Source: Candidatus Methanoperedens sp. (GTDB lineage Archaea > Halobacteriota > Methanosarcinia > Methanosarcinales > Methanoperedenaceae). From it: DNA of 32,000 nt. The stretch spans positions 1-32,000 of the forward strand of contig JBGQBI010000002.1 in the NCBI GenBank assembly GCA_041494705.1, read 5' to 3'. Position numbers and translations under genes: made by a program. Positions 732 through 21,572 of this stretch are shown in pieces; the first letter of the stretch is position 1, and each line of letters opens with the position of its first letter. The notes below the pieces were generated by a model. The model searched no databases. It saw only the letters and a program-made list of their open reading frames with translations, and had not been told where the DNA came from.

Positions 732-1985
732 ATGAAGATTTTTGATATTTTCAGGTTATCCCTGAGCCACGTTAAAAAAAGCAAAATGCGAAGCTGGCTC
801 ACTATTATCGGCATTGTAATAGGAGTGGCTGCTGTCGTAGCTATAATCTCCATAGGACAGGGGATGCAAGCGAGTGTCCAGGCTCGCCTGGGCAGCCTTG
901 GAGCCGATTTGATTACGGTCACCCCCGGTTTTTCACGGGCATCAGGCGGCGGTTTTGAAGGGGGAAGAGGGGGTGGCGGTGCTACTATTAACCTCACGGA
1001 TAAAGACGCAAACGCGATTAAGCAGTTGCCGGGAGTGTTATATGTAAACGGCATGGTTTCAGGCAGTTCGGATATAAGACTGGGTACAGAGAAGACCTCC
1101 GTGTCCATAACCGGTGTCGATACCGCAGTCTGGCGCTCCATGGTCACAACGCAGCTTGAAACGGGCAGGTATCTTCAGCCGGGCGATTCGAATGCTGTAG
1201 TTATAGGCAACTCTTTAGCTCATACTACTTTTTTACAGCCGATTACCCTGAATAGACCGATTATAATAGGAGGCAAGAGTTTCAAGGTCGTGGGAATCCT
1301 TGTTTCATCGGGAGGGGGTTTTGGAGGAGGGGGTGGTGATAATGCAGTATACATGTCCGCAGATTACGCCCGGGAGGTTATAACTACAAATGTATCCAGA
1401 AACACATTTACTTCAATCATGGTAAAGATAGCCGACCCAACGCTGGCGGACCAGATAACCCAGGATATTATAAACAAACTTATGCCTGAGAGGCACGTCA
1501 ATCCAAGAACAAGGGATTTTACAGTCACGGCATTTGCAACAATACAGCAGCAGATTACCAGCGTCGTCCAGACGATATCGCTGTTCCTTGCTGCGATAGC
1601 TGCAGTTTCGCTTCTCGTGGGCGCCGTGGGCATCGCAAACACCATGTTCATGTCTGTCATGGAACGCACAAGGCAGATAGGCCTGCTCAAAGCTCTTGGC
1701 GCCACAGATAATGAAGTAATGAAACTTTTCATTATGGAATCCGGATTATTCGGATTTGTCGGGGGAGTGCTCGGGATAATTTCCGGCGTACTGATATCGG
1801 TAATAATATCCGAGGTAGGCCTCAGGGCAATTGGAGCGGGCGGGACGATGAACGCAGTTGTCACGCCCCAGCTTCTTATCTTTGCACTTGCATTCTCTAT
1901 ATTCGTGGGTGTAATCTCAGGCGTCGCTCCTGCAAGATCAGCAGCAAAGATGAACCCGGTGGACGCATTGCGGTTTGAACAATAA
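732..1985 (+). CDS. ABC transporter permease, MacB/FtsX family
   Basis: 417 aa. It has an N-terminal TM helix (WLTIIGIVIGVAAVVAIISIG), a large extracytoplasmic domain and a C-terminal FtsX-type 3-TM bundle (ISLFLAAIAAVSLLVGAVGIANTM...MERTRQIGLLKALGA). It ends NPVDALRFE, typical of this family. Confidence 0.85.
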   Translation: MKIFDIFRLSLSHVKKSKMRSWLTIIGIVIGVAAVVAIISIGQGMQASVQARLGSLGADLITVTPGFSRASGGGFEGGRGGGGATINLTDKDANAIKQLPGVLYVNGMVSGSSDIRLGTEKTSVSITGVDTAVWRSMVTTQLETGRYLQPGDSNAVVIGNSLAHTTFLQPITLNRPIIIGGKSFKVVGILVSSGGGFGGGGGDNAVYMSADYAREVITTNVSRNTFTSIMVKIADPTLADQITQDIINKLMPERHVNPRTRDFTVTAFATIQQQITSVVQTISLFLAAIAAVSLLVGAVGIANTMFMSVMERTRQIGLLKALGATDNEVMKLFIMESGLFGFVGGVLGIISGVLISVIISEVGLRAIGAGGTMNAVVTPQLLIFALAFSIFVGVISGVAPARSAAKMNPVDALRFEQ

Positions 1986-2064
1986 GAAACAGGTTTCACC
2001 AAATCCTGTTTCTTGCAATTGTTCAAGGAATATTTTATCTGCTTTATCCTCATAAAAGGATTTA

Positions 2065-3036
2065 ATGGATTTATTATCTCATGCCCTGCTCCCCTTTTTG
2101 CTCGGGAATTTCTTCAAGCGAAGAAAGGATGAGATTGCCGCGCTTACCATAGGAGGAATCGCGCCGGACTTTGATATATCCCTTCTCTGGATTAACTTCG
2201 TTTATCCCAATTTCTTCCTTTTAACCCACCGCGGCATAACCCATTCCCTTTTTTTCGGGTTTTTCACATGTGTTCTTATACTATATCTTGCAACGCGAAG
2301 CCGCGTGAAAAACATAGTTAAACGTTATATCGATTTTGAGCCTGTGTTCTCGCGCCGTACTATACTATTTGCTTTTGCAGGCGTGATAATACATTTAATT
2401 CTTGACTATTCGACAACCCGGGGAGTCCCGCTTCTTTATCCGTTTGACGTATCAAGATTCTCTGCCGAGGTATTTTTCTATACCGACACATATCTCATGA
2501 TACTGGCGCTGGTTATGGTAATATGGTTATACAGGAAGCCTTTGCAAAAAAATACCGCAGTGAAGTTTTTAGTAATTTATCTTATCGTTTTCGCAGGGCT
2601 TGGAACTGCAAGGCTTACCGAAAAAATCAGCGCCGAGCAGTTTTTCCATGACACCGGAATAAAAGCCTATCCCACCATGAGTATTTTTGACTGGTATGCA
2701 CTTGGGATAGATAACAACGAAATAAAGATATACGAATACAATGGGTTTAACAGGACTTCGGTTTATAATGATACAGTTCCTGCCCTTGATGTATTATCGC
2801 CGGGCGAAGGACTTGATTCCGCTCTTGGCGCGGCTGGGGAACTTCCTCAGATAAAGATGTTCGAGTGGAGAGCGTATGCGGTTGCAGTCAACGCCACTTC
2901 CACTGACGGTATATGGTTTCTGGAATACTATGACCCGCTTGGGAAAGCGATGGCAAGGGGCGCTCCTGCTTTTTTGATGAGAATCAATAAGCCTATCATG
3001 GTCAAGGTTGAAGCGGGAAAGGCTGTTGTATTATAA
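2065..3036 (+). CDS. Membrane-bound metal-dependent hydrolase (YdjM/DUF457-like) with an extra C-terminal soluble domain
   Basis: 323 aa. The N-terminus MDLLSHALLPFLLG...GGIAPDFD...HRGITHS carries the His/Asp pattern of DUF457 membrane hydrolases. There are several TM helices, then a roughly 140-aa non-membrane tail. Confidence 0.6.
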   Translation: MDLLSHALLPFLLGNFFKRRKDEIAALTIGGIAPDFDISLLWINFVYPNFFLLTHRGITHSLFFGFFTCVLILYLATRSRVKNIVKRYIDFEPVFSRRTILFAFAGVIIHLILDYSTTRGVPLLYPFDVSRFSAEVFFYTDTYLMILALVMVIWLYRKPLQKNTAVKFLVIYLIVFAGLGTARLTEKISAEQFFHDTGIKAYPTMSIFDWYALGIDNNEIKIYEYNGFNRTSVYNDTVPALDVLSPGEGLDSALGAAGELPQIKMFEWRAYAVAVNATSTDGIWFLEYYDPLGKAMARGAPAFLMRINKPIMVKVEAGKAVVL

Positions 3037-3113
3037 ATAGAAAAAAGAAGAATAAATACTATCTGTTAATCTGGAATATATTGACCGGATAGGACTGTTA
3101 ATCGGGATAAATC

Positions 3114-5651
3114 ATGGAAAAAGCATTCGACCCGGAAAGTATCACCGGGCTTTCAGAAGACGACGCTGCCAGGAAACTCAAAGAAGAAGGTTATAACGAG
3201 CTTCCGTCCCAAAAAAAGCAGGGCATGTTTTCCATACTATTGAATGTTTTACTTGAGCCGATGCTGCTTTTGCTTTTAGGTTCAGGTTTGATATATTTGT
3301 TACTGGGGGAAGTAAAAGATGCTTTAATGCTGCTCCTGTTCGTGTTTGTGGTTTTCGGGATAACATTTTACCAGGAGAGAAAGGCAGAGCGGGCTTTAGA
3401 GGCTTTAAGGAACCTGTCAAGCCCGCGAGCGCTTGTGATAAGGGACGGAAAGCAAAAGAGAATTTCAGGGCGGGAGGTCGTCATGAGCGACATTCTTGTC
3501 CTGAGGGAAGGAGACCGCGTCCCTGCCGACGCTGTATTGCATTTTTGCACCAATTTCATGGTCGATGAGTCCATGCTTACAGGTGAATCCATAGCTGTAA
3601 GGAAGTGCGAATGGGACGGCAAAACCCGGTACATGCAGCCCGGCGGGGAAGATTTGCCCTTTGTATTTTCCGGGACGCTGGTAATACAGGGGCACGGGAT
3701 AGCGGAAGTCACGGCAACAGGGATACATACCGAGATGGGTAAAATCGGCAGGGCTTTGCAGGCCATTAACCGGGAAGAGACTTTACTTAAGAAAGAAACA
3801 AAGCTCGTGGTACGCAATTTCGCGATTGGAGGGCTGATACTCTGTACTTTCGTCGTGATAATCTACGGATTGACGAGGGGCGATTGGTTAAAGGGATTAC
3901 TTGCCGGGCTCAGTTTGGGTATGGCGTTGATCCCGGAAGAGTTTTCAGTGGTTTTGCTGATATTCCTGAGCCTCGGGGCGTGGAGGATGTCAAAAAGGCA
4001 GGTTCTGACGCGGCGCATGCCCGCTATCGAAACGCTTGGCTCGGCGACCGTTTTATGTGTCGATAAAACCGGCACCCTGACAATGAACAGGATGATTCTA
4101 AGTTCCATGTATTGCCGGGGTGAATACTACGATACTGTGAAAAACGGGGACAAGCCGCTTCCTGAAAAATTCCATGAATTGCTTGAGTTCGGATACCTGG
4201 CAAGCCAGAAGGACCCGTTTGACCCGATTGAGAAAGAGATAAAAAAAGGCACCGAACAATTTCTTTCACACACAGAACACGTACACCAGAACTGGAAACT
4301 TATCCTGGAGTACCCGCTCTCCAAAAACCTGCTGGCACTGTCAAACGTATGGGAATCATACGACAGGCGAAAGCATGTCATCGCAGCCAAAGGCGCTCCC
4401 GAGGCAATAGCGGATTTATGCCACATGGATGGGGTGAAAAAGAAAGAGCTGCTATCCCATGTACAGAGGATGGCTGACAGCGGATTGAGGGTTCTTGGAG
4501 TTGCAAAATCAAGTTTCCAGAAGGATTCCCTGCCCGAAATACAGCACGATTTCGAGTTTGAATTTATCGGATTGTTTGGCTTTGTAGACCCCGTCCGGCC
4601 CGGTGTAAGGGAGGCGGTCGCAGAATGTTATTCTGCAGGGATAAGGGTTATTATGGTCACGGGGGATTATCCGGGCACTGCCAGGCACATAGCGCGGGAA
4701 ATCGGTTTAATAGACCCTGATAAATATATAACAGGCGCTGAGCTTGCAGGAATGGGCGGGAGAGAGCTAGCGGAGAAAATCAAGACCACAAATATTTTTG
4801 CCCGCGTCGTGCCTGAACAAAAACTGGCTATCGTAAATGCCCTGAAATCCAACGATGAGGTCGTTGCGATGACAGGCGATGGGGTTAATGATGCTCCGGC
4901 ATTGAAATCAGCCCACATAGGTATTGCAATGGGCGAGCGGGGCACGGATGTCGCGAGGGAATCGTCAGCTATTGTCCTTCTGGATGATAATTTTTCGTCC
5001 ATTGTTTCAGCGGTCAGGCTTGGCAGGAGGATTTTTGATAATCTTAAGAAAGCTGTTTCCTACATATTTTCAGTTCATATACCGATAGCCGGGATGGCGC
5101 TCTTTCCCATATTATTCAAATTGCCCCAGGTGCTTTTGCCTGCTCATATCGCATTTCTTGAACTGATAATTGACCCGGCATGTTCAACTGTATTTGAGGC
5201 TGAACCCGAGGAGAAAAACATCATGGAAAGACCGCCCCGGAATTTGAAAGAAAAGTTATTCGGGAAAAAAAGCCTGATGGGCAGCCTGTTTCAGGGAATA
5301 AGCGTCCTTGTGGTTGTAATTCTCGTTTTTCTTCTTGCATTGTATCTGGGCAAGGGAGAACTGGAAGCCCGCACCCTTACATTCACTACGCTTGTTATCG
5401 CAAATCTTACCCTGATAGTGGCTAACCTCTCATGGTCAGGGGATATAATCAAGACAAATTATTCGGAAAACAAGGCATTATGGCTGGTAATAGGAGGAGC
5501 GCTCTTGATTCTCGTCCTGGTTCTTTACGTGCCTGCCTTGAGAGACCTGTTCCATTTTTCGGCGCTGCATCTTGAAGACCTGCTTATCGTGTTCGCTGCG
5601 GGAATTTTAAGTGTGGTGTGGTTCAAGCTGCTGAATGTCCGATTGGAGTAA
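3114..5651 (+). CDS. P-type cation-transporting ATPase (P2-type, Ca2+/cation pump-like)
   Basis: 845 aa. It has the Cation_ATPase_N-like start (LSEDDAARKLKEEGYNELP), TGES, the phosphorylation motif CVDKTGTLT, the hinge motif MTGDGVNDAPALK and 10 predicted TM segments. Confidence 0.9.
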   Translation: MEKAFDPESITGLSEDDAARKLKEEGYNELPSQKKQGMFSILLNVLLEPMLLLLLGSGLIYLLLGEVKDALMLLLFVFVVFGITFYQERKAERALEALRNLSSPRALVIRDGKQKRISGREVVMSDILVLREGDRVPADAVLHFCTNFMVDESMLTGESIAVRKCEWDGKTRYMQPGGEDLPFVFSGTLVIQGHGIAEVTATGIHTEMGKIGRALQAINREETLLKKETKLVVRNFAIGGLILCTFVVIIYGLTRGDWLKGLLAGLSLGMALIPEEFSVVLLIFLSLGAWRMSKRQVLTRRMPAIETLGSATVLCVDKTGTLTMNRMILSSMYCRGEYYDTVKNGDKPLPEKFHELLEFGYLASQKDPFDPIEKEIKKGTEQFLSHTEHVHQNWKLILEYPLSKNLLALSNVWESYDRRKHVIAAKGAPEAIADLCHMDGVKKKELLSHVQRMADSGLRVLGVAKSSFQKDSLPEIQHDFEFEFIGLFGFVDPVRPGVREAVAECYSAGIRVIMVTGDYPGTARHIAREIGLIDPDKYITGAELAGMGGRELAEKIKTTNIFARVVPEQKLAIVNALKSNDEVVAMTGDGVNDAPALKSAHIGIAMGERGTDVARESSAIVLLDDNFSSIVSAVRLGRRIFDNLKKAVSYIFSVHIPIAGMALFPILFKLPQVLLPAHIAFLELIIDPACSTVFEAEPEEKNIMERPPRNLKEKLFGKKSLMGSLFQGISVLVVVILVFLLALYLGKGELEARTLTFTTLVIANLTLIVANLSWSGDIIKTNYSENKALWLVIGGALLILVLVLYVPALRDLFHFSALHLEDLLIVFAAGILSVVWFKLLNVRLE

Positions 5652-5854: not shown

Positions 5855-6649
5855 TTAAGCGTTAGTTTTTTCGAATTTTTCAATATGCTCTTCCGACATT
5901 TTTCTAGCAAAAGTTTGAATTGCATTTTTATATCTATAAAAATCTTTTTCACTAACATTTATTTGTTTTGCATAAATGTATCGTTTCTTTTTTATTATTT
6001 TTTCGAGTTCATGACTAACTAATCCGTTATTGTGTATTAAACAATTTCTTACTAAATTTAATTCGATTACATCGTTTTGAATGTCGATCTTAAATCCTAG
6101 ATTGTTTTGAAAATATTTTATCCAATCCTCGACAGAACCATACATCAAATCTCTTACCTTTGCTTCTTTTAACCTTTCTAAAGTATTACCTGTTTTAAGA
6201 GCATCAATCAATTCTTCATCTTTCAAAGTCGACTTTGTTGATTTCAAAGTATCCATATTATTTTCAAATATATTTCTAAGTAGATCACTAACAAATCCCT
6301 CAAATACTAGCATTAAGGAAATTACCGCTTGTTCTCTTGCTAGAGCGGGAATTCTTTTAATCGTTATTAATCCAGATCTAACTACATTTCGAAGAAAAGA
6401 CAACTCCTTAGAATTAAAATTTATTTTAATCAGTTCCTGCTTCTTGATATTGTCAATAGCTTCTATTTCTTTCACTATCTTTGTAAATTCTTCATGAGAT
6501 AATTTTTTTTGTGCAAATTTCGATCCAAGTTTAGCGAGTAACCGAACGACACGAGCTTCTTTATGAGAAGCACCATAGACAGCCGAACTATAAACTTCAT
6601 CGATTGATTTTAAGTTATTCAATAAATTTGATAATAATTTTTTTGTCAT
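5855..6649 (-). CDS. HEPN-motif protein (predicted RNase-type toxin/abortive-infection-like), all-alpha, orphan
   Basis: 264 aa ORF in a markedly AT-rich islet (about 5750-6770). It carries the canonical HEPN Rx4H motif with a polar residue after Arg: LVRNCLIHNNG (R201 codon 6047-6049, H206 codon 6032-6034). The rest of the sequence looks helical. I recognise no other domain. Confidence 0.55.
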   Translation of the reverse strand: MTKKLLSNLLNNLKSIDEVYSSAVYGASHKEARVVRLLAKLGSKFAQKKLSHEEFTKIVKEIEAIDNIKKQELIKINFNSKELSFLRNVVRSGLITIKRIPALAREQAVISLMLVFEGFVSDLLRNIFENNMDTLKSTKSTLKDEELIDALKTGNTLERLKEAKVRDLMYGSVEDWIKYFQNNLGFKIDIQNDVIELNLVRNCLIHNNGLVSHELEKIIKKKRYIYAKQINVSEKDFYRYKNAIQTFARKMSEEHIEKFEKTNA

Positions 6650-6790: not shown

Positions 6791-7807
6791 TCACCCAGCA
6801 CTTTTTCTCTTAACCTTCTCGACTTCCTTCAATATCGTGTCAATCCCGCCCTTCACAATCGTCTCGAACTTCTCACCGCGCATGCTCGCCCTGTTCAGCG
6901 TCTCGCCCAGCTCCAGAGGAAGCGCAATATCAACCCAGTTATCCCTTACCCTGTGAAGCAAAGGCTTTTCCAGTATCTCTTTCGCTTTTTCATCGACCTT
7001 CGATGCTGTTTCATTATCCTTGAATTTAACAGGCACATGCAGCGTCAGTGAGGTAATTTTACCATCTTTTTCTTTCGGCGTGTACAGCCGTACAATCTCA
7101 CTCCCGAACCGCCCGAAGAACTGGTCTGTCCCTTTACCGAATCCTATTTTTTCAATCGCAGCGACAGCCCCGGCTGGAATGTCGTCCATGATGCAGCCGC
7201 AAAGAGCGCTTGTAATCTCCTTTTCTTCAGTGCTTTCCGCAAGGCGGATAAAATCATCAAGCGGGAAGCCCATTACTATTTCATCATCCCTGTACCCGGA
7301 AAACATCCGCGCGCCGTTGCAGAGAAGGGACAGGTTCACCTTTTTCTCCATGAAAGGTATGGCGGTACACTCTCCGCATACTGCAAACTCTCCCTTGAAC
7401 TTAACTTCAACCAACTGTTTTTCATGCAATTGCGAAAGGATTGTGGATACGCGCATTATTTTGCGTGGCGTACCGATGACGACAACAACATCAGGTTTTT
7501 TATCTGTTTTTTCAAGCGGGGAAACGCTCACTAATTTTGTGTTCGCAGGTTTTATACGCGGATAGACTTCCCCGTAGCTCGGTTCTGTAAACCCGAGCGC
7601 AAGTTCTGCGCTTGTGCATGTGAGTTCTTCAACGCCAAAAATGAAACTCTCGCCATATACCGCGCTTCGTCTCACCATTTCACAAAACCTCATGGGAGCG
7701 GTGCTGGTTTTTTGTTCATTGCCATCACTTATTATCCTGACTGCAACAGGCGATGACGGAAGTTCAAAAAATTTCCTGAATTTCATCGATAATTCTGCAT
7801 ATTCCAT
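6791..7807 (-). CDS. DUF169 (ArCR, COG2043) family protein with a roughly 100-aa C-terminal extension
   Basis: I take the internal ATG at 7807 (MEYAELSMKFRKFFELPSSPVAVRII...) as the start. It lies 2 nt after the SepCysS stop, whereas the longer ORF (to 7885) would overlap SepCysS by 76 nt. The N-terminal 230 aa resemble DUF169 proteins. The tail (DGKITSLTLHVPVKF...KVKRKSAG) is additional. Confidence 0.6.
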   Translation of the reverse strand: MEYAELSMKFRKFFELPSSPVAVRIISDGNEQKTSTAPMRFCEMVRRSAVYGESFIFGVEELTCTSAELALGFTEPSYGEVYPRIKPANTKLVSVSPLEKTDKKPDVVVVIGTPRKIMRVSTILSQLHEKQLVEVKFKGEFAVCGECTAIPFMEKKVNLSLLCNGARMFSGYRDDEIVMGFPLDDFIRLAESTEEKEITSALCGCIMDDIPAGAVAAIEKIGFGKGTDQFFGRFGSEIVRLYTPKEKDGKITSLTLHVPVKFKDNETASKVDEKAKEILEKPLLHRVRDNWVDIALPLELGETLNRASMRGEKFETIVKGGIDTILKEVEKVKRKSAG

Positions 7808-7809
7808 TT

Positions 7810-8997
7810 TCAATCCTCGACTTTTATTCCGTTTTCTCGTGCGATATCCTTGAAAGCTCTGGCGACATACTCTACCTGTTCCCATTTCAAGCCATAAGTA
7901 TTAATCTTGAAATTCTTGCTCATGCCTGGATGGAGCCCTACAATCTTTCTCTTTTTCAATTCGTGATAAAGGAAATAGCCCCTGCGCTTATCCTTTTCAG
8001 CTATTTCATGAAGGGGCAGGCTTTCAATATTCATAAGCGGATGCTGCTTTGGTTTAACACCCATCTGGTGGAATCCCTCGATTTTTTCAAGCTCTTTTAC
8101 AAAATACTGCGCTTTCTTTACCTCTTCATCCCAGTGCTTGACCCTTTCAACCACTGCGGGAAATGATGCCATAAGCGTTGCAACAGGCGCGCCAAATACG
8201 GGTGAGCAGCCAAAAAGCGCAACTTCCTTTTTCGTGAATCCTCGTCCGCTCCAGTCACCGCGGCATGTGGATTTATTAAAAACCTTGCCGCTCCATTCGT
8301 ATGTGGTGGCAAGTATCCCGATAGGCGCCGACGCAGCCCAGCTCTTGTGCCCCGAGCCGCACAGGAAATCAACATGGAGTTTCTTGCCGTCAATGGGCAT
8401 GATGCCTGACGAATAAGCAGTATTCAAAAGGAATGGGACGCCATATTCCTTGCAGATTTTTCCCACTTTTTCAGCATCAGCGATATTGCCATACCTGTAA
8501 TCAACATGCGTCAGCACTGCCATTGCCGGGAGTTTGCCTGTCTTTTGCTCGACTTCCTCAAATTTCCTGGCATATCCATCGATATCGATTTCAAACGTGG
8601 GATAACCATTATGCGGCACTTCAACGATATTCAATTTATTCGCTTCGGCTGCAAGATAGGATGTGTAATGCGCCAGGGCGTCCAGCACCACGGTATCGCC
8701 CGGCTCGCACACCATGTGCATGGCAGCCCATTTGGCATGCCTGCATCCGGCTGTGAACCTGACATCGTCCATGTTCAGGAACTCGGCCACATCCTGGACA
8801 AGGTCGTGTACGGGGGGCTTATCTACAAGGTCAACCCGTGCCTCGAAGCAATAATCGCATACCGAATAGCCGTCCCCGAATTCAAGAAGAGCCTTTCGCG
8901 CTTCTGCCGTCAGCACGCCGCCCCGCTGTATGGGATGTACGTTGACATAGGTATCGGAAATGCCGCGGGTGAGGTTTTTGTATTTGTTAAGTTCCAT
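7810..8997 (-). CDS. pscS: O-phospho-L-seryl-tRNA(Cys):Cys-tRNA synthase (SepCysS), PLP-dependent
   Basis: 395 aa. It closely resembles the archaeal SepCysS sequences I remember: NVHPIQRGGVLTAEARKALLEFGDGYSVCDYC, the PLP-lysine region GSGHKSWAASAPIG, and HWDEEVKKAQYF. Confidence 0.85.
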   Translation of the reverse strand: MELNKYKNLTRGISDTYVNVHPIQRGGVLTAEARKALLEFGDGYSVCDYCFEARVDLVDKPPVHDLVQDVAEFLNMDDVRFTAGCRHAKWAAMHMVCEPGDTVVLDALAHYTSYLAAEANKLNIVEVPHNGYPTFEIDIDGYARKFEEVEQKTGKLPAMAVLTHVDYRYGNIADAEKVGKICKEYGVPFLLNTAYSSGIMPIDGKKLHVDFLCGSGHKSWAASAPIGILATTYEWSGKVFNKSTCRGDWSGRGFTKKEVALFGCSPVFGAPVATLMASFPAVVERVKHWDEEVKKAQYFVKELEKIEGFHQMGVKPKQHPLMNIESLPLHEIAEKDKRRGYFLYHELKKRKIVGLHPGMSKNFKINTYGLKWEQVEYVARAFKDIARENGIKVED

Positions 8998-13433: not shown

Positions 13434-13506
13434 AGCCCGGTAGTGTAGCGGTCAATCATGCGGGACTCTGGATCCTGCGACCAAGGTTCGAATCCTTGCC
13501 GGGCTA
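13434..13506 (+). tRNA. tRNA-Gln (anticodon CUG), no encoded CCA
   Basis: The acceptor stem AGCCCGG pairs with CCGGGCT and the discriminator is A. The T arm is CAAGG-TTCGAAT-CCTTG. The anticodon arm is CGGGA-CTCTGGA-TCCTG, giving CUG at positions 34-36. The overall sequence resembles archaeal tRNA-Gln. A T-rich tract follows. Confidence 0.85.
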
Positions 13507-13530: not shown

Positions 13531-13830
13531 TTAGTCAACAGTCAAGTCAGTATCGTTGATTGGCGTTATTGTATTTCCAGAGACATTAGTATCAACGCTT
13601 GCAACTTCTTTTGAAATACTTTCGATATCGCTGGAAATTGTTGCGCTGCTAATTGTTAGATTGCCAGAAGTTCCAGGACTGGCTGGCACGGTGTTTGTAG
13701 CTGTTATATTATTGCCAGTTCCTGGAGTGACTGTTGCATTGTTTGTTGCAGGGTTTTGCTCTGTTTTTTGCAAGCATCCGGAGAAGCCTAAAACAACTAA
13801 GATTAATAGCAAAACGATTAGTTTTTTCAT
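13531..13830 (-). CDS. Small secreted Thr/Asn-rich protein with a lipobox-like signal peptide
   Basis: 99 aa. It starts MKKLIVLLLILVVLGFSGC (signal peptide plus Cys). The start overlaps the upstream gene's stop in an ATGA arrangement. Confidence 0.55.
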   Translation of the reverse strand: MKKLIVLLLILVVLGFSGCLQKTEQNPATNNATVTPGTGNNITATNTVPASPGTSGNLTISSATISSDIESISKEVASVDTNVSGNTITPINDTDLTVD

Positions 13831-14705
13831 ACTGTTCCCTCATGTGGTTGATTATTCGTCGAGACGTTAGAACCTTTGCCTTTTCCACCTTTTTCAGCAT
13901 CGCTCATTTCCGGAACCATCTTTCGTGCTTTGTCAAATGCTTTTACCAGATAATTTTGTGCATTATTAATGAAACTGCGAACATCTTTTGCCATCTGGCT
14001 TATTTCCTGGGTCGAGTTTGTTTGTGCATACCTGGCTTTCGCATTCGCGATATTCTCCTTGGTTTTCGCAAGGTCGGCTTTATATTGCGTCAGGGAATTT
14101 TCCAGTTCGCGTGTGTCGTATCCAGACGCTTTAAGCTCAATTAGTTTCGCATCCAGTTTGGTGGTTATGCCGTCCGCTTTGACCATCAGGTTGTCCATCT
14201 GGGTGATGAGTTTGTCGGTCTGATTTTGCAAGGCTGTTTCTTCAATTTGATTGACGATGTCTTCCACGTTTTTTGCAGCGCTTTTCAGGGCGTACTTGCT
14301 GGAGCCGGAATCCGCAAAAACCGCTTTTGCTTCAGCCAGTTTTGCATCGATTTCATTACGATTCGGAATTGTTATATTCTCGTCTTGAAGTTGGACCAGT
14401 CTTTTCTCTGTCAATACAACTTCTTTTAGTAAAATGCCCTGCATCAAGGGTTTAAGTTTGTTCCAACAGGTCCCCTGGGGGGCGTTAGTAGCTACCGCAG
14501 ATTCTTTGCACATTCTTTTTTGATTTATGAAATTTTCCTTTGCAGTGTAAAAGGCTTCTAATCTTTCTTTGAAAGGCTGTGTTTCATTGCCTACGTTTGG
14601 CGCAGGAGGTGTTGGCGGAACTGTTCCCGCTGCCTGTGCGAGATTGATAGTTGAAAAAGTAAGTGCAGCCATCAAAACAAATACTATAAGAATTTTATAT
14701 TTCAT
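13827..14705 (-). CDS. Secreted, predicted coiled-coil/all-helical protein of unknown function
   Basis: 292 aa. It has a signal peptide (MKYKILIVFVLMAALTFSTINLAQAAG) followed by a Pro-rich linker and long heptad-like helical sequence. GGAGGAAGGGT lies immediately upstream of the ATG. Confidence 0.6.
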   Translation of the reverse strand: MKYKILIVFVLMAALTFSTINLAQAAGTVPPTPPAPNVGNETQPFKERLEAFYTAKENFINQKRMCKESAVATNAPQGTCWNKLKPLMQGILLKEVVLTEKRLVQLQDENITIPNRNEIDAKLAEAKAVFADSGSSKYALKSAAKNVEDIVNQIEETALQNQTDKLITQMDNLMVKADGITTKLDAKLIELKASGYDTRELENSLTQYKADLAKTKENIANAKARYAQTNSTQEISQMAKDVRSFINNAQNYLVKAFDKARKMVPEMSDAEKGGKGKGSNVSTNNQPHEGTV

Positions 14706-14877: not shown

Positions 14878-15963
14878 TTATTGAGTCGTTTCTATGCGTT
14901 TTAATTCCTGCGTGGAATAAGAAGAATAATTTGCAATTCTTGGCGCAATATAAAATAATTTCTCATCATGTTTTTTAATTGTTCCAAATATAGTTTTTTC
15001 GGATAAACCGTTTGTAACTTCAGCATGCAATAAATAATTTCCAGACTGCAAAGTAGAAGTATTAACGTTTAAATACCAGATTCCTTCATACTTTTTTCCA
15101 ATCATTAATTTGTTTCTTGATAAATTTTCTTGGGTATTGTTTATTGTGATATCATCGATGTACTGAAAAATATTGCCATCGCTGGCATTCATTTTGTATA
15201 AATTTATATAATTTGCAGAATACGCAATCCCTGTTTCTTTTATTTTGAACGTTTGAATACCAGTATTTGTATTTGTTTGTGAGAATTCTTCTATCGAAAA
15301 AGTGCCTGTTAATAAATATAAAGGAGCTGTTAGTAAAAGTAAAACTAATAGTAAAACTAGCATTGATATTAAAAAAATAACCAGTGGACTAAAGTTAAGA
15401 ATCATATATCTTTCAAAATCGAATTTTAAGAGAGTCTTAACCTTGATTTGACTTATTTTCGACCTGATATTTCTTAGTGGTTCGATTAAATTTATTTCGG
15501 TGAGACGGATGTAGATAATTATAATAATCGTAGAGGCAAATATCCAATAAAAATTGAATATATAATTATAATTATTAATTTTACTTGGATCCTTAAACAT
15601 CTCATGAGATAAAAGGGTAAAAATCGAAAAAACAATCCACAAGATAGGTAGTATAAAAATAGATTTAAATAATTTCTGTGTAATGTTTTTTATTTGTTTA
15701 CTTTCTGATTCTGTGGAGAGTAAATACCCTTTTAGTATTAGAAACAAAAAAACCATTGAAAATTCAAGTAATAATAACATTACTAAAAAATAAACCGTAA
15801 GTTGAAGAAAATCACCTAAAACAATCACATTATTATTAAAATAATCAATCGTTTTCAATAAAAAAGCTGATACTCCAGCTAATAGTGTTATTGCAAGGGT
15901 TATCTCTTTAAAATCACGAGAATTTTGCCGCTTCTCTTTTTGCAACTCTTCCTCAATTCCCAA
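14878..15963 (-). CDS. Polytopic membrane protein with a C-terminal beta-rich extracytoplasmic domain, unknown function
   Basis: 361 aa ORF in a strongly AT-rich islet (about 14706-16060). It has about six hydrophobic segments, then a roughly 140-aa Asn/Thr-rich soluble tail. I recognise no family. Confidence 0.5.
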   Translation of the reverse strand: MGIEEELQKEKRQNSRDFKEITLAITLLAGVSAFLLKTIDYFNNNVIVLGDFLQLTVYFLVMLLLLEFSMVFLFLILKGYLLSTESESKQIKNITQKLFKSIFILPILWIVFSIFTLLSHEMFKDPSKINNYNYIFNFYWIFASTIIIIIYIRLTEINLIEPLRNIRSKISQIKVKTLLKFDFERYMILNFSPLVIFLISMLVLLLVLLLLTAPLYLLTGTFSIEEFSQTNTNTGIQTFKIKETGIAYSANYINLYKMNASDGNIFQYIDDITINNTQENLSRNKLMIGKKYEGIWYLNVNTSTLQSGNYLLHAEVTNGLSEKTIFGTIKKHDEKLFYIAPRIANYSSYSTQELKRIETTQ

Positions 15964-18526: not shown

Positions 18527-19723
18527 TTACATCTGTGAACAGATTGATTGCTTGAGCATGGAAAAAGTATGGTCTTGTAAACTAGGTTGAAAAATATCGT
18601 GGTTGTCCACGTAGTTTGATGCTAAACAACCTCCCCGAAAGTCTTCAGCAATTCCTTTAGCCTCACAAGCCACACGCAACTGCGAGCTATTAACCAACTC
18701 AAACCGGTTTTTAAGGTGGGTCAAGCCATATCGTACATCACCTAACTTCATTATAAGCTCTTTATTATTCAAAGCCAAAATCTTTGAACACGGTGATGCC
18801 TCTCCATTTACAGCAACTGATATTGAGTTACGACCTGCCTGGCATCCAAAAAATGGCTCCGTGAGTTTTTCATCAAATTCATTAATTCGCAAATCATGGC
18901 GCGGTGTTTGTTTGTACCAATGGAATAATTTCTTTAACTGTTTGCTATAAGAATCTATACTTTCCATAGACCACTCAATACCCGTTGCATAACCAATAAT
19001 AAATTGGTTGATGCCCACTTCATAAAGTCCTAGGACATTTTCAAAGAGATCGGAGGCTGTTGATGGCATAACAGTAATTTTTACACCAACCCATGGTTGT
19101 ACTCTTTTCAATATTTCAAACGCTCTCATTACTTGTTTGAAGGTGCCACTACCATGCTTATCTATTCTGAATCTGTTGTGTGTAGACTCGAGCCCATCGA
19201 CACTTAAAAGAACTTTGACTTTATGCTGAGCAAAGTAATTGACCATATAATCATTTAGCAGAACTCCATTGGTGGTGATATTGAAATCAATAGATTTTCC
19301 GAAAAGTGAAGCCTTTTTTTCAGCATGTTCTGTTACAGATCGAACCGCAGGGAAATTTAACAGAGGCTCGCCACCGAAATGAGTTACATATAATTGAGGT
19401 TCGCCCTGGGCGTAGTCAAAAAGAAGATCTATCGCTGCTTTAGCTGTTTCCAGAGGCATCTTTCGATGCCCATGAAAGGTTTTTTCGAAACAGTAGCTAC
19501 ATGCCAGATTGCAACCCTCCGTATGAATGATTTCTAATTTTGTCAATGGAGGAAACAGGGATCCATTTAACTGCGCTACAGTCTGATATATAAGGTTTCT
19601 AACATTTTCTGAAGATAAGTTCAGGCAATTTTCAAGATGAGAATGGAGCAGACCAATATCTAGAGAATCTGATAATAAATACCCATAGACATCATCAATT
19701 AAATTTTTATGCAATGTTATCAT
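18527..19723 (-). CDS. Radical SAM enzyme with a SPASM/twitch-like C-terminal auxiliary Fe-S domain (anSME-family peptide maturase-like)
   Basis: 398 aa. It has the CX3CX2C motif GCNLACSYCFEK (C71/C75/C78) and GGEPLL. The C-terminal sequence C-x12-G-x4-C (FFGCQAGRNSISVAVNGEASPC) matches the first SPASM/twitch signature. Further Cys residues occur at VACEAK, RGGCLAS and SICSQM. About 60 aa precede the radical SAM core. Confidence 0.8.
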   Translation of the reverse strand: MITLHKNLIDDVYGYLLSDSLDIGLLHSHLENCLNLSSENVRNLIYQTVAQLNGSLFPPLTKLEIIHTEGCNLACSYCFEKTFHGHRKMPLETAKAAIDLLFDYAQGEPQLYVTHFGGEPLLNFPAVRSVTEHAEKKASLFGKSIDFNITTNGVLLNDYMVNYFAQHKVKVLLSVDGLESTHNRFRIDKHGSGTFKQVMRAFEILKRVQPWVGVKITVMPSTASDLFENVLGLYEVGINQFIIGYATGIEWSMESIDSYSKQLKKLFHWYKQTPRHDLRINEFDEKLTEPFFGCQAGRNSISVAVNGEASPCSKILALNNKELIMKLGDVRYGLTHLKNRFELVNSSQLRVACEAKGIAEDFRGGCLASNYVDNHDIFQPSLQDHTFSMLKQSICSQM

Positions 19724-19908
19724 TCTTTTGATATATGAGTGTGTCTGAATATTTTCTCAAGGATAAGATACCAAATTGCGATGTTATAGGATTGTTTAAC
19801 AAAAACGCTACTAATTCATAGCTTTATCATAACGGCATGTATCATATTTTCAAATAAGATAAGCGTTTAGGGTTGGGTTCAAATATCCATTTCTTGCGCA
19901 ATTTTTTT

Positions 19909-20142
19909 CTATCCCATGAACTTAATTGTGCAGTCGAATTGTCCCGAACATGATACTGTACCAGTACACGAGTAGTCACCACACTTAAAACCTGTCCCCG
20001 TGCAAGCATAAGGCATAGGCCTTGGAGACACCACCGCCTTCTCACTAGCAGCTAGAGATTGAGATATTCTTGTAAGAATCTCATTTGCTATATAATTTGA
20101 CAGGCTTTTCAACTCCTCTTGAGACAGTTTCTCGATTACCAT
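19909..20142 (-). CDS. Candidate RiPP precursor peptide: a roughly 44-aa Cys-free leader plus a Cys-rich core of about 33 aa
   Basis: 77 aa: MVIEKLSQEELKSLSNYIANEILTRISQSLAASEKAVVSPRPMP-YACTGTGFKCGDYSCTGTVSCSGQFDCTIKFMG. All five Cys (47, 54, 59, 65, 71) are in the last 31 residues. The gene has its own SD and TATA box and is co-oriented 185 nt upstream of the radical SAM gene. Confidence 0.7.
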   Translation of the reverse strand: MVIEKLSQEELKSLSNYIANEILTRISQSLAASEKAVVSPRPMPYACTGTGFKCGDYSCTGTVSCSGQFDCTIKFMG

Positions 20143-20145
20143 AAT

Positions 20146-20184
20146 TTTCCTCCCAGAATATCTTTAATTCTGTTTCTATATAAA
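20146..20184 (-). promoter_or_regulatory. Promoter/RBS of the precursor peptide gene (TATA box TTTATATA plus SD GGGAGG)
   Basis: The minus strand reads ...AATGTTTATATAGAAACAGAATTAAAGATATTCTGGGAGGAAAATT-ATG. The TATA-like box is at 20177-20184, about 35-40 nt upstream of the ATG. The SD is at 20149-20154, 6 nt upstream. Confidence 0.5.
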
Positions 20185-20214
20185 CATTGTGTTTAGCGGG
20201 AACCTGTTTCCTGA

Positions 20215-21324
20215 TTAAAATAATTCCAAACTCTTAAGTTCATATTTCCTGCTCCCGCATCCTATTTTTTCAGCAGCTTCGATATGTAACCACGGGTTCA
20301 CGCCCCATACATTGTATATCGATTTTCCATCCGGTTTCATTCTCCCGTTAATTAAATCGATTGTTGCAGAATCAATTGCCACCGGGTCTTTTCCAGCCAG
20401 GATACCTATATCTTCAACAAAGCGCTCACCCGAAAAATTGAAGCAATCGCAGCCCGGCGTGAGGTCGTAGACCCAGTTAATATATCCAATCCGCCCATTC
20501 AGCGCTTTTATAGGGCCAAGCGCGGCTTCACCCAGCCTCTTTTGCATTTTATCTGTCGCATCCGGAGGAGGAATTATCGCCTCCTGCTGGCATGCATCAG
20601 CGCAGGACAACTCACCGCAGCATTTTGTATGGTCGATTTCAGGCGGCGTTATAGCGCCCCACGGGCATACTTCCACGCAATCCCCGCACTGTATGCATTT
20701 TTCAGGGTCGATGGAGGGCTTGCCCACTTCATGTACCTTTATCTTTCCTGCCCTGTCAAGACATCCCATGCCCAGGTGCTTTACCGCACCGCCGAATCCT
20801 GAAGCAGGATGCCCTTTTCCATGGGAAATGATAATCATCGAATCGGCTTCCGCGATGGCAGAGGCAACCGTAATGCTGCCAAGCGCTTCCCCATTAATCT
20901 CTATTTCCTTGCCATCGCCGCCTCTTAAACCGTCAGCCACAATAAAAGGGGCGTTCATGCTCGCATGTGTAAAACCGTTCATTGAAGCGCCTTTTATAAG
21001 ATTCGGCGCGTTCAGTTTCATTCCTTTGTATAACGTCGTGGTGTCGGTCACAAACGGTATTCCTCCGGCTTCCATCACAAGGTCAACCACAGTTCTTGCA
21101 ATTACAGGTCTTATATGAGTCGTGTTCCCATATTCCCCCGGATGTATTTTTATTGCTACAATATCACCTTTTTTGACAGGTGAAATATACGGAAAAATTC
21201 TCTTTATCTGTTCAGGCTGGTTATCTTCAGGCTTTGTGATTTTCGCATCTTTGAATAATATATTACTCAGGAATATCCCTCCACATCTCTTTTGATTTGT
21301 GATATCATAGTATTTAAACTGCAT
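20215..21324 (-). CDS. DUF362-family protein with an inserted 2x[4Fe-4S] ferredoxin-type domain
   Basis: It has the DUF362-like motif GDIVAIKIHPGEYGNTTHIRP, then HGKGHP...GMGC, and a ferredoxin motif CIQCGDCVEVCPWGAI plus further Cys clusters (CCGELSCADAC). The ORF is open to 21408. I prefer the ATG at 21324 (MQFKYYD...) because it leaves a TATA-containing divergent promoter free. The start is uncertain. Confidence 0.65.
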   Translation of the reverse strand: MQFKYYDITNQKRCGGIFLSNILFKDAKITKPEDNQPEQIKRIFPYISPVKKGDIVAIKIHPGEYGNTTHIRPVIARTVVDLVMEAGGIPFVTDTTTLYKGMKLNAPNLIKGASMNGFTHASMNAPFIVADGLRGGDGKEIEINGEALGSITVASAIAEADSMIIISHGKGHPASGFGGAVKHLGMGCLDRAGKIKVHEVGKPSIDPEKCIQCGDCVEVCPWGAITPPEIDHTKCCGELSCADACQQEAIIPPPDATDKMQKRLGEAALGPIKALNGRIGYINWVYDLTPGCDCFNFSGERFVEDIGILAGKDPVAIDSATIDLINGRMKPDGKSIYNVWGVNPWLHIEAAEKIGCGSRKYELKSLELF

Positions 21325-21338
21325 ACTATTTAAACCAC

Positions 21339-21352
21339 AATATTTATATAAT
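21339..21352. promoter_or_regulatory. AT-rich TATA-like element (AATATTTATATAAT) in a divergent intergenic region
   Basis: It is positioned about 20-30 nt from both the ATG at 21324 (minus) and the ATG at 21381 (plus). This is consistent with leaderless or short-leader archaeal transcripts in both directions. Confidence 0.3.
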
Positions 21353-21380
21353 CTCTCGTTAAATATATGACTAATCAAAA

Positions 21381-21572
21381 ATGGGAGATGGGTTAATGTT
21401 AGAGACATCCAAAGAAAGAGTAAAACTGCTCAAAGCCGGTATCCCAGGCAAGAGAATAGAAACAATGTATATAAAATTCAATAATTTCAAGATAGTCCAG
21501 AAACCTGTACTTTTTGAGATGGTTGAAACCGATTCAAACAATATTGAAAATTATAACAGCCAAAAGCTGTGA
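21381..21572 (+). CDS. Hypothetical small protein (63 aa)
   Basis: The only support is an open frame with an ATG downstream of a TATA-like box. I recognise no family and the composition is AT-rich. Confidence 0.25.
   Translation: MGDGLMLETSKERVKLLKAGIPGKRIETMYIKFNNFKIVQKPVLFEMVETDSNNIENYNSQKL

Follow-up and report, generated by a model that had tools for sequence, protein, structure and literature searches.

To our knowledge, the characterisation of thioether peptides made by radical S-adenosylmethionine (SAM) enzymes has been confined almost entirely to Firmicutes and a few Proteobacteria. PapB and PapA form the freyrasin ranthipeptide system of Paenibacillus polymyxa; PapA reportedly carries Cys-Asp/Glu links within CX3D motifs, with six CX3D rings in freyrasin. 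CteB and CteA belong to the SCIFF (six-Cys-in-forty-five) systems of Clostridia, for which we know of no assigned physiological role, and the auxiliary cluster of CteB is reported to offer an open site for a substrate Cys. QhpD, which together with QhpC serves the maturation of the gamma subunit of quinohemoprotein amine dehydrogenase, introduces a number of Cys thioethers into a small polypeptide that contains Cys. For PapB, the joining of Cys to Asp or Glu has been described (PMC9413430). Here we compare these systems with a two-gene locus in a 32,000-nt stretch of DNA from Candidatus Methanoperedens sp. (contig JBGQBI010000002.1, positions 1 to 32,000; 'the window' below means this whole stretch), where the gene for a 77-aa Cys-rich peptide precedes, on the same strand, the gene for a 398-aa radical SAM enzyme. 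The cassette most likely represents an uncharacterised, horizontally spread, minimal family of ribosomally synthesised peptides with post-translational modifications (RiPPs) that would carry in-line thioether rings.

We asked whether the two genes belong together. A hidden Markov model (HMM) of the family peptides was run over the six-frame open reading frames (ORFs) of the loci encoding enzyme homologues, and a locus was considered eligible if its enzyme gene was complete and preceded by no less than 300 nt of upstream sequence. A family peptide was encoded on the same strand in 23 of 23 non-redundant eligible loci and also in two loci fetched afterwards (25/25; the E-values of the locus peptides ranged from about 1e-25 to 2e-5), and in several truncated loci a family peptide lay downstream of the enzyme. 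As each of the 25 informative loci thus pairs a homologous enzyme with a homologous peptide, the pairing is not a matter of chance. The loci span Methanoperedens, Bacillus, Pelotomaculum, Kitasatospora, Acidobacteria and soil metagenomes. Each of the four archaeal relatives found by the genome scan (Methanoperedens, Methanosarcinales) has an ORF of 72-81 aa directly 5' of the enzyme gene, with a leader like that of the window peptide (SxEDIxxIxxxV...) and a Cys-rich core; paired peptides are also present in Bacillus toyonensis, Pelotomaculum, Kitasatospora, a Bryobacteraceae metagenome-assembled genome and two ENA contigs. An earlier interpretation of the window made from its letters alone (the sequence-only reading) had named co-conservation of peptide and enzyme as one of its checks, and this came out in its favour in archaea as well as in bacteria. 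The enzymes closest to that of the window (L122, 71% identical, and L123, 64% by BLASTP) carry the peptides most like its own, and the distance matrices of enzymes and peptides were correlated (Spearman 0.29, a value somewhat inflated by near-duplicate loci; 0 of 2000 Mantel permutations were as high). Moreover, in an all-against-all BLAST of the flanks nothing recurred across the loci but the enzyme with its antisense shadow ORFs and the peptide, a few extra genes being common to closely related acidobacterial-type loci only; there is no third conserved gene, and the genomic contexts of the loci were entirely different from one another. A short leader/core precursor that is co-conserved with a putative modifying enzyme qualifies the cassette, at the sequence level, as a RiPP cluster, and we put the probability that the 77-aa product serves as a precursor peptide and that the neighbouring radical SAM maturase modifies it at about 0.75.

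The extent of the family depended on how it was searched for. In the genome scan a full-length enzyme alignment was swamped by the generic FGGEP pattern and yielded four close relatives only; a family-specific C-terminal alignment was used thereafter for metagenomes and added 31 loci. With the 77-aa peptide as a word-indexed query, the only match was the peptide itself in its own genome (the identical protein is annotated in three assemblies). A profile of locus-derived peptides gave 12 matches, and HMMER, run exhaustively against 1.84 billion representatives, gave 116 peptide clusters at E<=0.001, a few long ones among them being probably false positives. The peptide family became visible only by neighbourhood inspection and exhaustive profile search. 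The peptide matched no Pfam model and, at E<=0.01, no NCBIfam model. The enzyme family is large: none of the best 120 clusters at 90% identity was less than 49% identical to the window enzyme, and among its named members are those of Acidobacteria, Actinobacteria, Firmicutes, cyanobacteria, Methanosarcinales, Methanotrichaceae, Methanoperedens and Nitrososphaeraceae. In Bacillus toyonensis (L084) two different precursor genes (4734-4943 and 6379-6579) lie one on either side of the radical SAM gene, and one of the two peptides is labelled 'Lantibiotic' in UniRef. Four acidobacterial-type loci with 3-Cys peptides (FTCPGDFGC…; L088, L097, L098 and L110) have extra flanking genes in common: an upstream ORF of ~408 aa in L088, L097 and L098, and a downstream ORF in all four, with a faint Glyco_transf_28 match in L088. 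These extra genes could be lineage-specific tailoring genes or plain synteny.

The peptide itself has the division into leader and core expected of a RiPP precursor. Its five Cys are residues 47, 54, 59, 65 and 71, with none before residue 47. In an AlphaFold2 prediction based on a 12-sequence alignment, residues 8-35 formed a helix (predicted local distance difference test score, pLDDT, about 87-91 over residues 11-30) and the core was disordered. The Cys-free helical leader, the five C-terminal Cys and the distance of 185 nt from an enzyme on the same strand, all named in the sequence-only reading, were thus borne out by the ORF list, the residue positions and the structure prediction. The five units of the window core are C47-F52, C54-Y57, C59-V63, C65-F69 and C71-F75, and the same 5-Cys subclass occurs in 14 representative peptide clusters and in Kitasatospora (L086), whose core (YACTSTSFTCGTYSCTGIVSCSGDFNCTIQFAG) is nearly identical to that of the window (Table 1). 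In the family, a conserved, Cys-free leader, predicted to be helical, is followed by a variable core. Across 119 family peptides the number of Cys ranged between 3 and 12 (mode 5), with a spacing of mostly 5-6 residues. Aromatic residues (F/Y/W) were enriched both at position -2 of Cys (73%) and at position +4 (50%) over a background of 12.8%, the commonest residues at +4 being F (36%), Y (14%), S (7%) and G (7%). Of the 95 single-core peptides, 93 had an aromatic residue at +3 to +5 of the last Cys, but only 43 had one at -2 of the first Cys. This means that the repeat unit is C-x3-aromatic; it often ends in K-F-T/S-G. Among the representative precursors P0135, P0137, P0140, P0141, P0146 and P0150, some have one leader with two cores and others two full leader-core units within a single ORF of 110-176 aa. 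In Aphanocapsa lilacina (L087 6321-7853; identical locus L101 3631-5163) there is no separate precursor gene; an SBBP beta-propeller protein of 510 aa, encoded just downstream of the radical SAM gene, has a leader-like segment with a Cys/aromatic core (…LFVCTGSQFNCGTYDCTTIHGCSNIFGC…) joined in frame at its C-terminus, with no internal ATG or GTG start.

The enzyme clearly belongs to the radical SAM superfamily (PF04055, 66.6 bits against a cut-off of 29.5), and in Pfam only Radical_SAM and Fer4_12 were matched. The CX3CX2C motif and the C-terminal CX12GX4C motif (residues 294-312) were found as the sequence-only reading had described them, and seven Cys (C71, C75, C78, C294, C312, C353 and C366) were invariant among 17 homologues. 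A full SPASM assignment did not follow: PF13186, run on the C-terminal domain alone, gave 18.4 bits against a cut-off of 21.5 and aligned only profile positions 1-35 of 67. C353 and C366 align with the first and last Cys of the CX2CX5CX3C motif of CteB, the middle two being absent. A CSGCS-type tail in many bacterial members could add ligands; the window protein has one tail Cys and some archaeal relatives have none. From these features, the C-terminal domain is best described as a degenerate, twitch-like half-SPASM domain. On the basis of the ligand scheme of CteB and of anaerobic sulfatase-maturating enzyme (anSME), we infer one auxiliary cluster on C294, C312 and C366, with a possible open site for a substrate Cys; a second auxiliary cluster is doubtful. 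At the other end of the protein, the first 58 residues consist of helices only, without strands, in the AlphaFold2 model (pLDDT 88 for the enzyme) and matched no PqqD or RiPP recognition element (RRE) model of Pfam even at E<=10, indicating that a canonical RRE is absent. The leader-binding region would be this three-helix domain.

Next, we compared the cassette with the described systems. PapB was the top NCBIfam match of the enzyme (NF047865, 193.5 bits against a cut-off of 340), covering model positions 3-330 of 330, i.e. practically the entire model, and PapA carries repeated Cys-x3-acceptor units that lead to in-line rings, a register that the C-x3-aromatic repeat parallels. However, the score is well below the cut-off, and the family has Phe or Tyr after x3 where PapA has Asp: the units of the window core are C-x(2-4)-F/Y/V instead of the CX3D/E of PapA precursors, in line with the aromatic share at +4 given above for the family. 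The window enzyme also differs from PapB in its purely helical N-terminus and in the reduced SPASM domain, and its family in occurring in archaea and in many bacterial phyla. CteB was the closest structure in the Protein Data Bank both by a profile of the 17 homologues (5WGG, E 1.5e-44) and by the fold of the AlphaFold2 model (Foldseek E 2.9e-24, template-modelling score 0.74), ahead of ChlB, anSME, TigE, SkfB and SuiB. Six 'catalytic-site proximity' positions have been defined for CteB (PMC10288494). When mapped by hand from the profile alignment, four of the six were the same in the window enzyme (F79, F116, T150 and S174), and the remaining two were S313 and K314 where CteB has H and Q. SCIFF systems are likewise minimal modules of one Cys-rich precursor and one maturase. 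Nevertheless, the SCIFF maturase model (TIGR03974) gave 132 bits against a cut-off of 425 and the peptide did not match the SCIFF precursor model (TIGR03973); in CteB, moreover, the SPASM domain is complete and holds two auxiliary clusters, and an RRE-like domain stands at the N-terminus, whereas the window enzyme has neither domain in canonical form. QhpD, the second-best match (149.6 bits against 453) and the best plasmid relative (about 29% identity), differs in that its qhp operon partners (dehydrogenase subunit, protease, exporter) had no recognisable counterpart among the scanned neighbours of the window cassette. The nif11 maturase (135.5 bits against 518.7) and CcpM (132.6 against 500) scored in the same range. 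The sequence-only reading had spoken of a sactipeptide/ranthipeptide, SCIFF-like maturase. Its broader part stands, as the thioether maturases PapB, QhpD and SCIFF are among the best scores and CteB is the nearest structure, but by its profile scores the cassette is not a SCIFF system and falls below the cut-off of every named family.

Taken together, the relatives of the enzyme and the C-x3-aromatic register make in-line Cys-aromatic thioether rings the most economical hypothesis. In this scheme the leader, an N-terminal amphipathic helix, would dock on the enzyme, probably on its three-helix domain, and thereby set the disordered Cys-rich core in the active site. SAM would be reductively cleaved at the CX3CX2C cluster, and the resulting 5'-deoxyadenosyl radical would take a hydrogen from the acceptor residue. 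A Cys thiolate bound to the auxiliary [4Fe-4S] cluster (ligands C294, C312 and C366) would then attack the carbon radical to form the thioether. With every Cys linked to an aromatic residue some four positions downstream of it, the product would contain five small in-line rings, a 'thioether ladder', analogous to the six CX3D rings formed by PapB in freyrasin. The cassette would do so without a dedicated protease or exporter, and the family would have moved horizontally between bacteria and archaea. The sequences themselves show the gene pair, the motifs, the homology, the co-conservation and the register of the repeat; what we infer are the leader docking, the thioether chemistry, the acceptor residue, the cluster number and the biological role. 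Thioether chemistry of some kind is, in our estimate, somewhat more probable than not, if less so than the precursor-maturase relationship itself; the pairing of Cys specifically with the aromatic residue at +4 is more tentative and falls somewhat short of even odds. The same tentative standing applies to the proposal that the family constitutes a new class of thioether ladder peptides, characterised by CX3-aromatic links, a single auxiliary cluster, no RRE and horizontal spread across Acidobacteria, Actinobacteria, Firmicutes, cyanobacteria and at least two archaeal lineages. No description of the family or of its motif was found in the literature, the coverage of which was incomplete, so that this absence is not proof of novelty.

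Several observations weigh against the thioether scheme. The enzyme matched 70 NCBIfam families and every one of them below its curated cut-off. It lacks the CX2CX5CX3C half of the SPASM domain, and its cluster content thus differs from that of PapB and CteB; in its predicted structure it also lacks the canonical RRE (a PqqD-like winged helix of three strands and three helices). One of the five units of the window core, C59-V63, has Val where an aromatic residue is expected. Furthermore, no protease or exporter was found in or adjoining the module, as the sequence-only reading had already stated, which leaves the release and the role of the product unexplained, and the beta-propeller fusion of the cyanobacterium is unlike the picture of a simple secreted peptide. 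Finally, the aromatic-x-Cys periodicity could reflect a three-residue cyclophane motif. In this case the two genes would still be a RiPP pair, with C-C (cyclophane-type) or other non-thioether crosslinks on aromatic-x-Cys units and with Cys as the third-position partner, in a disulfide or as a metal ligand. The frequency of aromatic residues at -2 resembles the aromatic-X-X3 motif, and the cyclophane 'triceptide' systems (FxsB, GrrM/OscB, YhhB, AmcB) share with the window cassette repeated short aromatic motifs and a leader-core precursor beside a radical SAM/SPASM enzyme. Their maturases are, however, among the much weaker matches of the enzyme (YhhB 85.8, GrrM 71.7, AmcB 68.1 and FxsB 65.8 bits, i.e. 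66-86 bits), far below the thioether families, the nearest structure is that of the thioether-forming CteB, and the register at the two ends of the core is Cys-first, which argues against cyclophanes although not decisively. We consider crosslinks of this kind unlikely.

Two further explanations do away with the peptide as a substrate. The small Cys-rich protein could be a metal- or Fe-S-binding protein or a redox partner (similar to a mini-ferredoxin or a metallothionein) that aids the radical SAM enzyme in acting on another substrate. A core with five to six regularly spaced Cys would suit such a protein, as would the missing protease and exporter and the occurrence of the Aphanocapsa module as the C-terminal domain of a larger protein. 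On the other hand, a conserved leader joined to a hypervariable core, a Cys number that varies between 3 and 12 and precursors with more than one core are typical traits of RiPP substrates and unlike cofactor-binding proteins; the core is predicted to be disordered; and the close homologues of the enzyme among the named families all act on peptides. We regard this explanation as quite improbable. Even less probable, in our view, is that the enzyme is an anSME or another protein or cofactor maturase next to which the small ORF lies incidentally. A Methanosarcinales homologue (P0040) was named 'Anaerobic sulfatase-maturating enzyme' by its source and anSME structures were among the fold matches (E about 1e-16). 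Against this, the anSME model (TIGR03942) gave 92.4 bits where 349 are required, an outcome that also answers the check which the sequence-only reading had directed at sulfatase maturases, the 7-Cys SPASM motif of anSME is incomplete in the enzyme, no sulfatase gene was present among the Pfam-scanned neighbours in the window, and the small ORF is kept in all the informative loci across phyla while all other neighbours vary. The scores suggest that the name of P0040 is an over-annotation. A defence system was also rejected as a reading, as PADLOC reported only a generic radical-SAM likeness to viperins (50.6 and 34.4 bits).

We then asked how a cassette of this kind came to be present in an archaeon. 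Enzyme identities across the two domains were 50-70%. The window enzyme was 71-72% identical to unnamed environmental proteins and about 60% identical to bacterial ones, compared to 53-57% for its Methanoperedens relatives, whose peptides fall in subclasses other than the 5-Cys subclass of the window. The radical SAM gene had a GC content of 0.383 (0.336 at third codon positions, GC3), while its neighbours had 0.43-0.50; the peptide gene (0.432) was average. The module had been called AT-richer than its flanks in the sequence-only reading, which is true of the enzyme gene but not of the peptide gene. The enzyme identities, the 5-Cys subclass shared with Kitasatospora (with its nearly identical core) and the low GC3 of the enzyme gene support lateral acquisition of the cassette, as had been suspected, and also more than one entry into archaea. 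Among the related loci, the closest homologue locus, L122, has a gene for a ParA/RepA-like partition ATPase (2361-3113) following the enzyme gene, and its cassette may be on a mobile element. The third-closest locus, L123, has archaeal-looking neighbours (1127-3123), AglG- and Agl16-like glycosyltransferases. In Bacillus toyonensis the cassette forms part of an island that also contains resolvase and phage-integrase genes, and a Pycsar-like pair (cyclase plus PycTM) stands beside it. Plasmids and phages as vehicles were tried and rejected, since no close family member was found on them: all matches were below 60% identity, and those listed, at 25-30%, were QhpD/nif11-type or unannotated.

The positions of the features in the window are collected in Table 1. 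A scan for sigma-70 promoters and intrinsic terminators was no better than for shuffled sequences, the bacterial consensus used in it not applying to archaea. The RNA fold of the spacer between the two genes was not significant (z = -1.04), and peptide-enzyme spacers elsewhere in the family measure about 30 to 380 nt.

Table 1. Features of the peptide-enzyme cassette in the window
Feature	Position	Strand	Basis
Precursor peptide gene, 77 aa plus stop codon	19909..20142	(-)	ORF list; peptide-family HMM match, E 6.7e-25
Leader, residues 1-44, Cys-free, conserved motif (S/T)xE(E/D)(L/I)xx(L/I)...	20011..20142	(-)	Motif common to the peptides of other loci
Core, residues 45-77: YACTGTGFKCGDYSCTGTVSCSGQFDCTIKFMG	19912..20010	(-)	Five C-x(2-4)-aromatic/Val units
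Candidate TATA-box-like TTTATATA, 5' of peptide gene	20177..20184	(-)	By eye only
Candidate Shine-Dalgarno-like GGGAGG, 6 nt ahead of peptide ATG	20149..20154	(-)	By eye
Spacer of 185 nt, peptide gene to enzyme gene, includes T5 run (GCGTTTTTG)	19724..19908	(-)	Sequence
Radical SAM maturase gene, 398 aa plus stop codon	18527..19723	(-)	Pfam Radical_SAM and Fer4_12; best NCBIfam match PapB
CX3CX2C (CNLACSYC; C71, C75, C78), residues 71-78, SAM-binding [4Fe-4S] cluster site	19490..19513	(-)	Motif; invariant in 17 homologues
Twitch-like/half-SPASM domain, residues 290-380	18584..18856	(-)	Conserved C294, C312, C353, C366
N-terminal three-helix domain, residues 1-58	19550..19723	(-)	AlphaFold2 helices 2-16, 23-34, 38-56, no beta-strands

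Just 5' of the peptide gene and on the same strand, a gene for a DUF362 protein into which a 4Fe-4S ferredoxin domain is inserted (20215-21408, (-)) ends 72 nt away. As a conserved partner of the cassette it was rejected; it is missing beside the module in the Methanoperedens relatives and the bacterial loci examined, and is thus probably unrelated. In the rest of the window, uS5 of the eukaryotic/archaeal type and SepCysS are both encoded with scores above the cut-offs, and a geranylgeranyl-reductase-family gene scored above its subfamily cut-off. The neighbouring gene that had been labelled MoaD proved to be of the SAMP2/ThiS type (above the cut-off of Pfam SAMP2, just below that of the NCBIfam model). 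These genes mark the host as an archaeon. By far the most AT-rich ORFs of the window, 14878-15963 (-) and 5855-6649 (-), have a GC content of 0.27 and 0.28 and a GC3 of 0.24 and 0.21, respectively, and may be foreign genes; the former encodes 361 aa with long hydrophobic stretches (judged by eye) and no Pfam match, the latter has a weak, sub-threshold Swt1-like HEPN match. A tRNA-Gln (CTG) gene at 13434-13506 (+), a site that could be an integration hotspot, lies just 5' of the uncharacterised ORF 13827-14705 and the AT-rich ORF 14878-15963. As listed, the DUF169 ORF 6791-7885 (-) and the SepCysS ORF 7810-8997 (-) overlap by 76 nt, and the start of the former (codons from 7885 down) was probably called too early.

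Many uncharacterised radical SAM-SPASM peptide families exist. The distinct points of this cassette, as far as they can be read from its genes, are the core motif, the reduced SPASM domain, the lack of an RRE and the distribution across domains. The same compact cassette is found in the SepCysS-encoding archaeon of the window as well as in Methanoperedens and soil bacteria from several phyla, and its core motif, C-x3-Phe/Tyr, often ending in KFTG, is so conserved that an archaeal core and that of Kitasatospora nearly match. If the proposed chemistry is true, the aromatic residues would be a new type of acceptor for in-line thioether rings, and the enzyme would be a natural case of a maturase that recognises its leader although it has no RRE and that works with a reduced SPASM domain. 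The two genes would also make up a system compact enough to be tested directly in a heterologous host and to be used for peptide engineering. If the ladder reading is true as well, the cassette would be among the first directly testable archaeal radical-SAM thioether RiPP systems.

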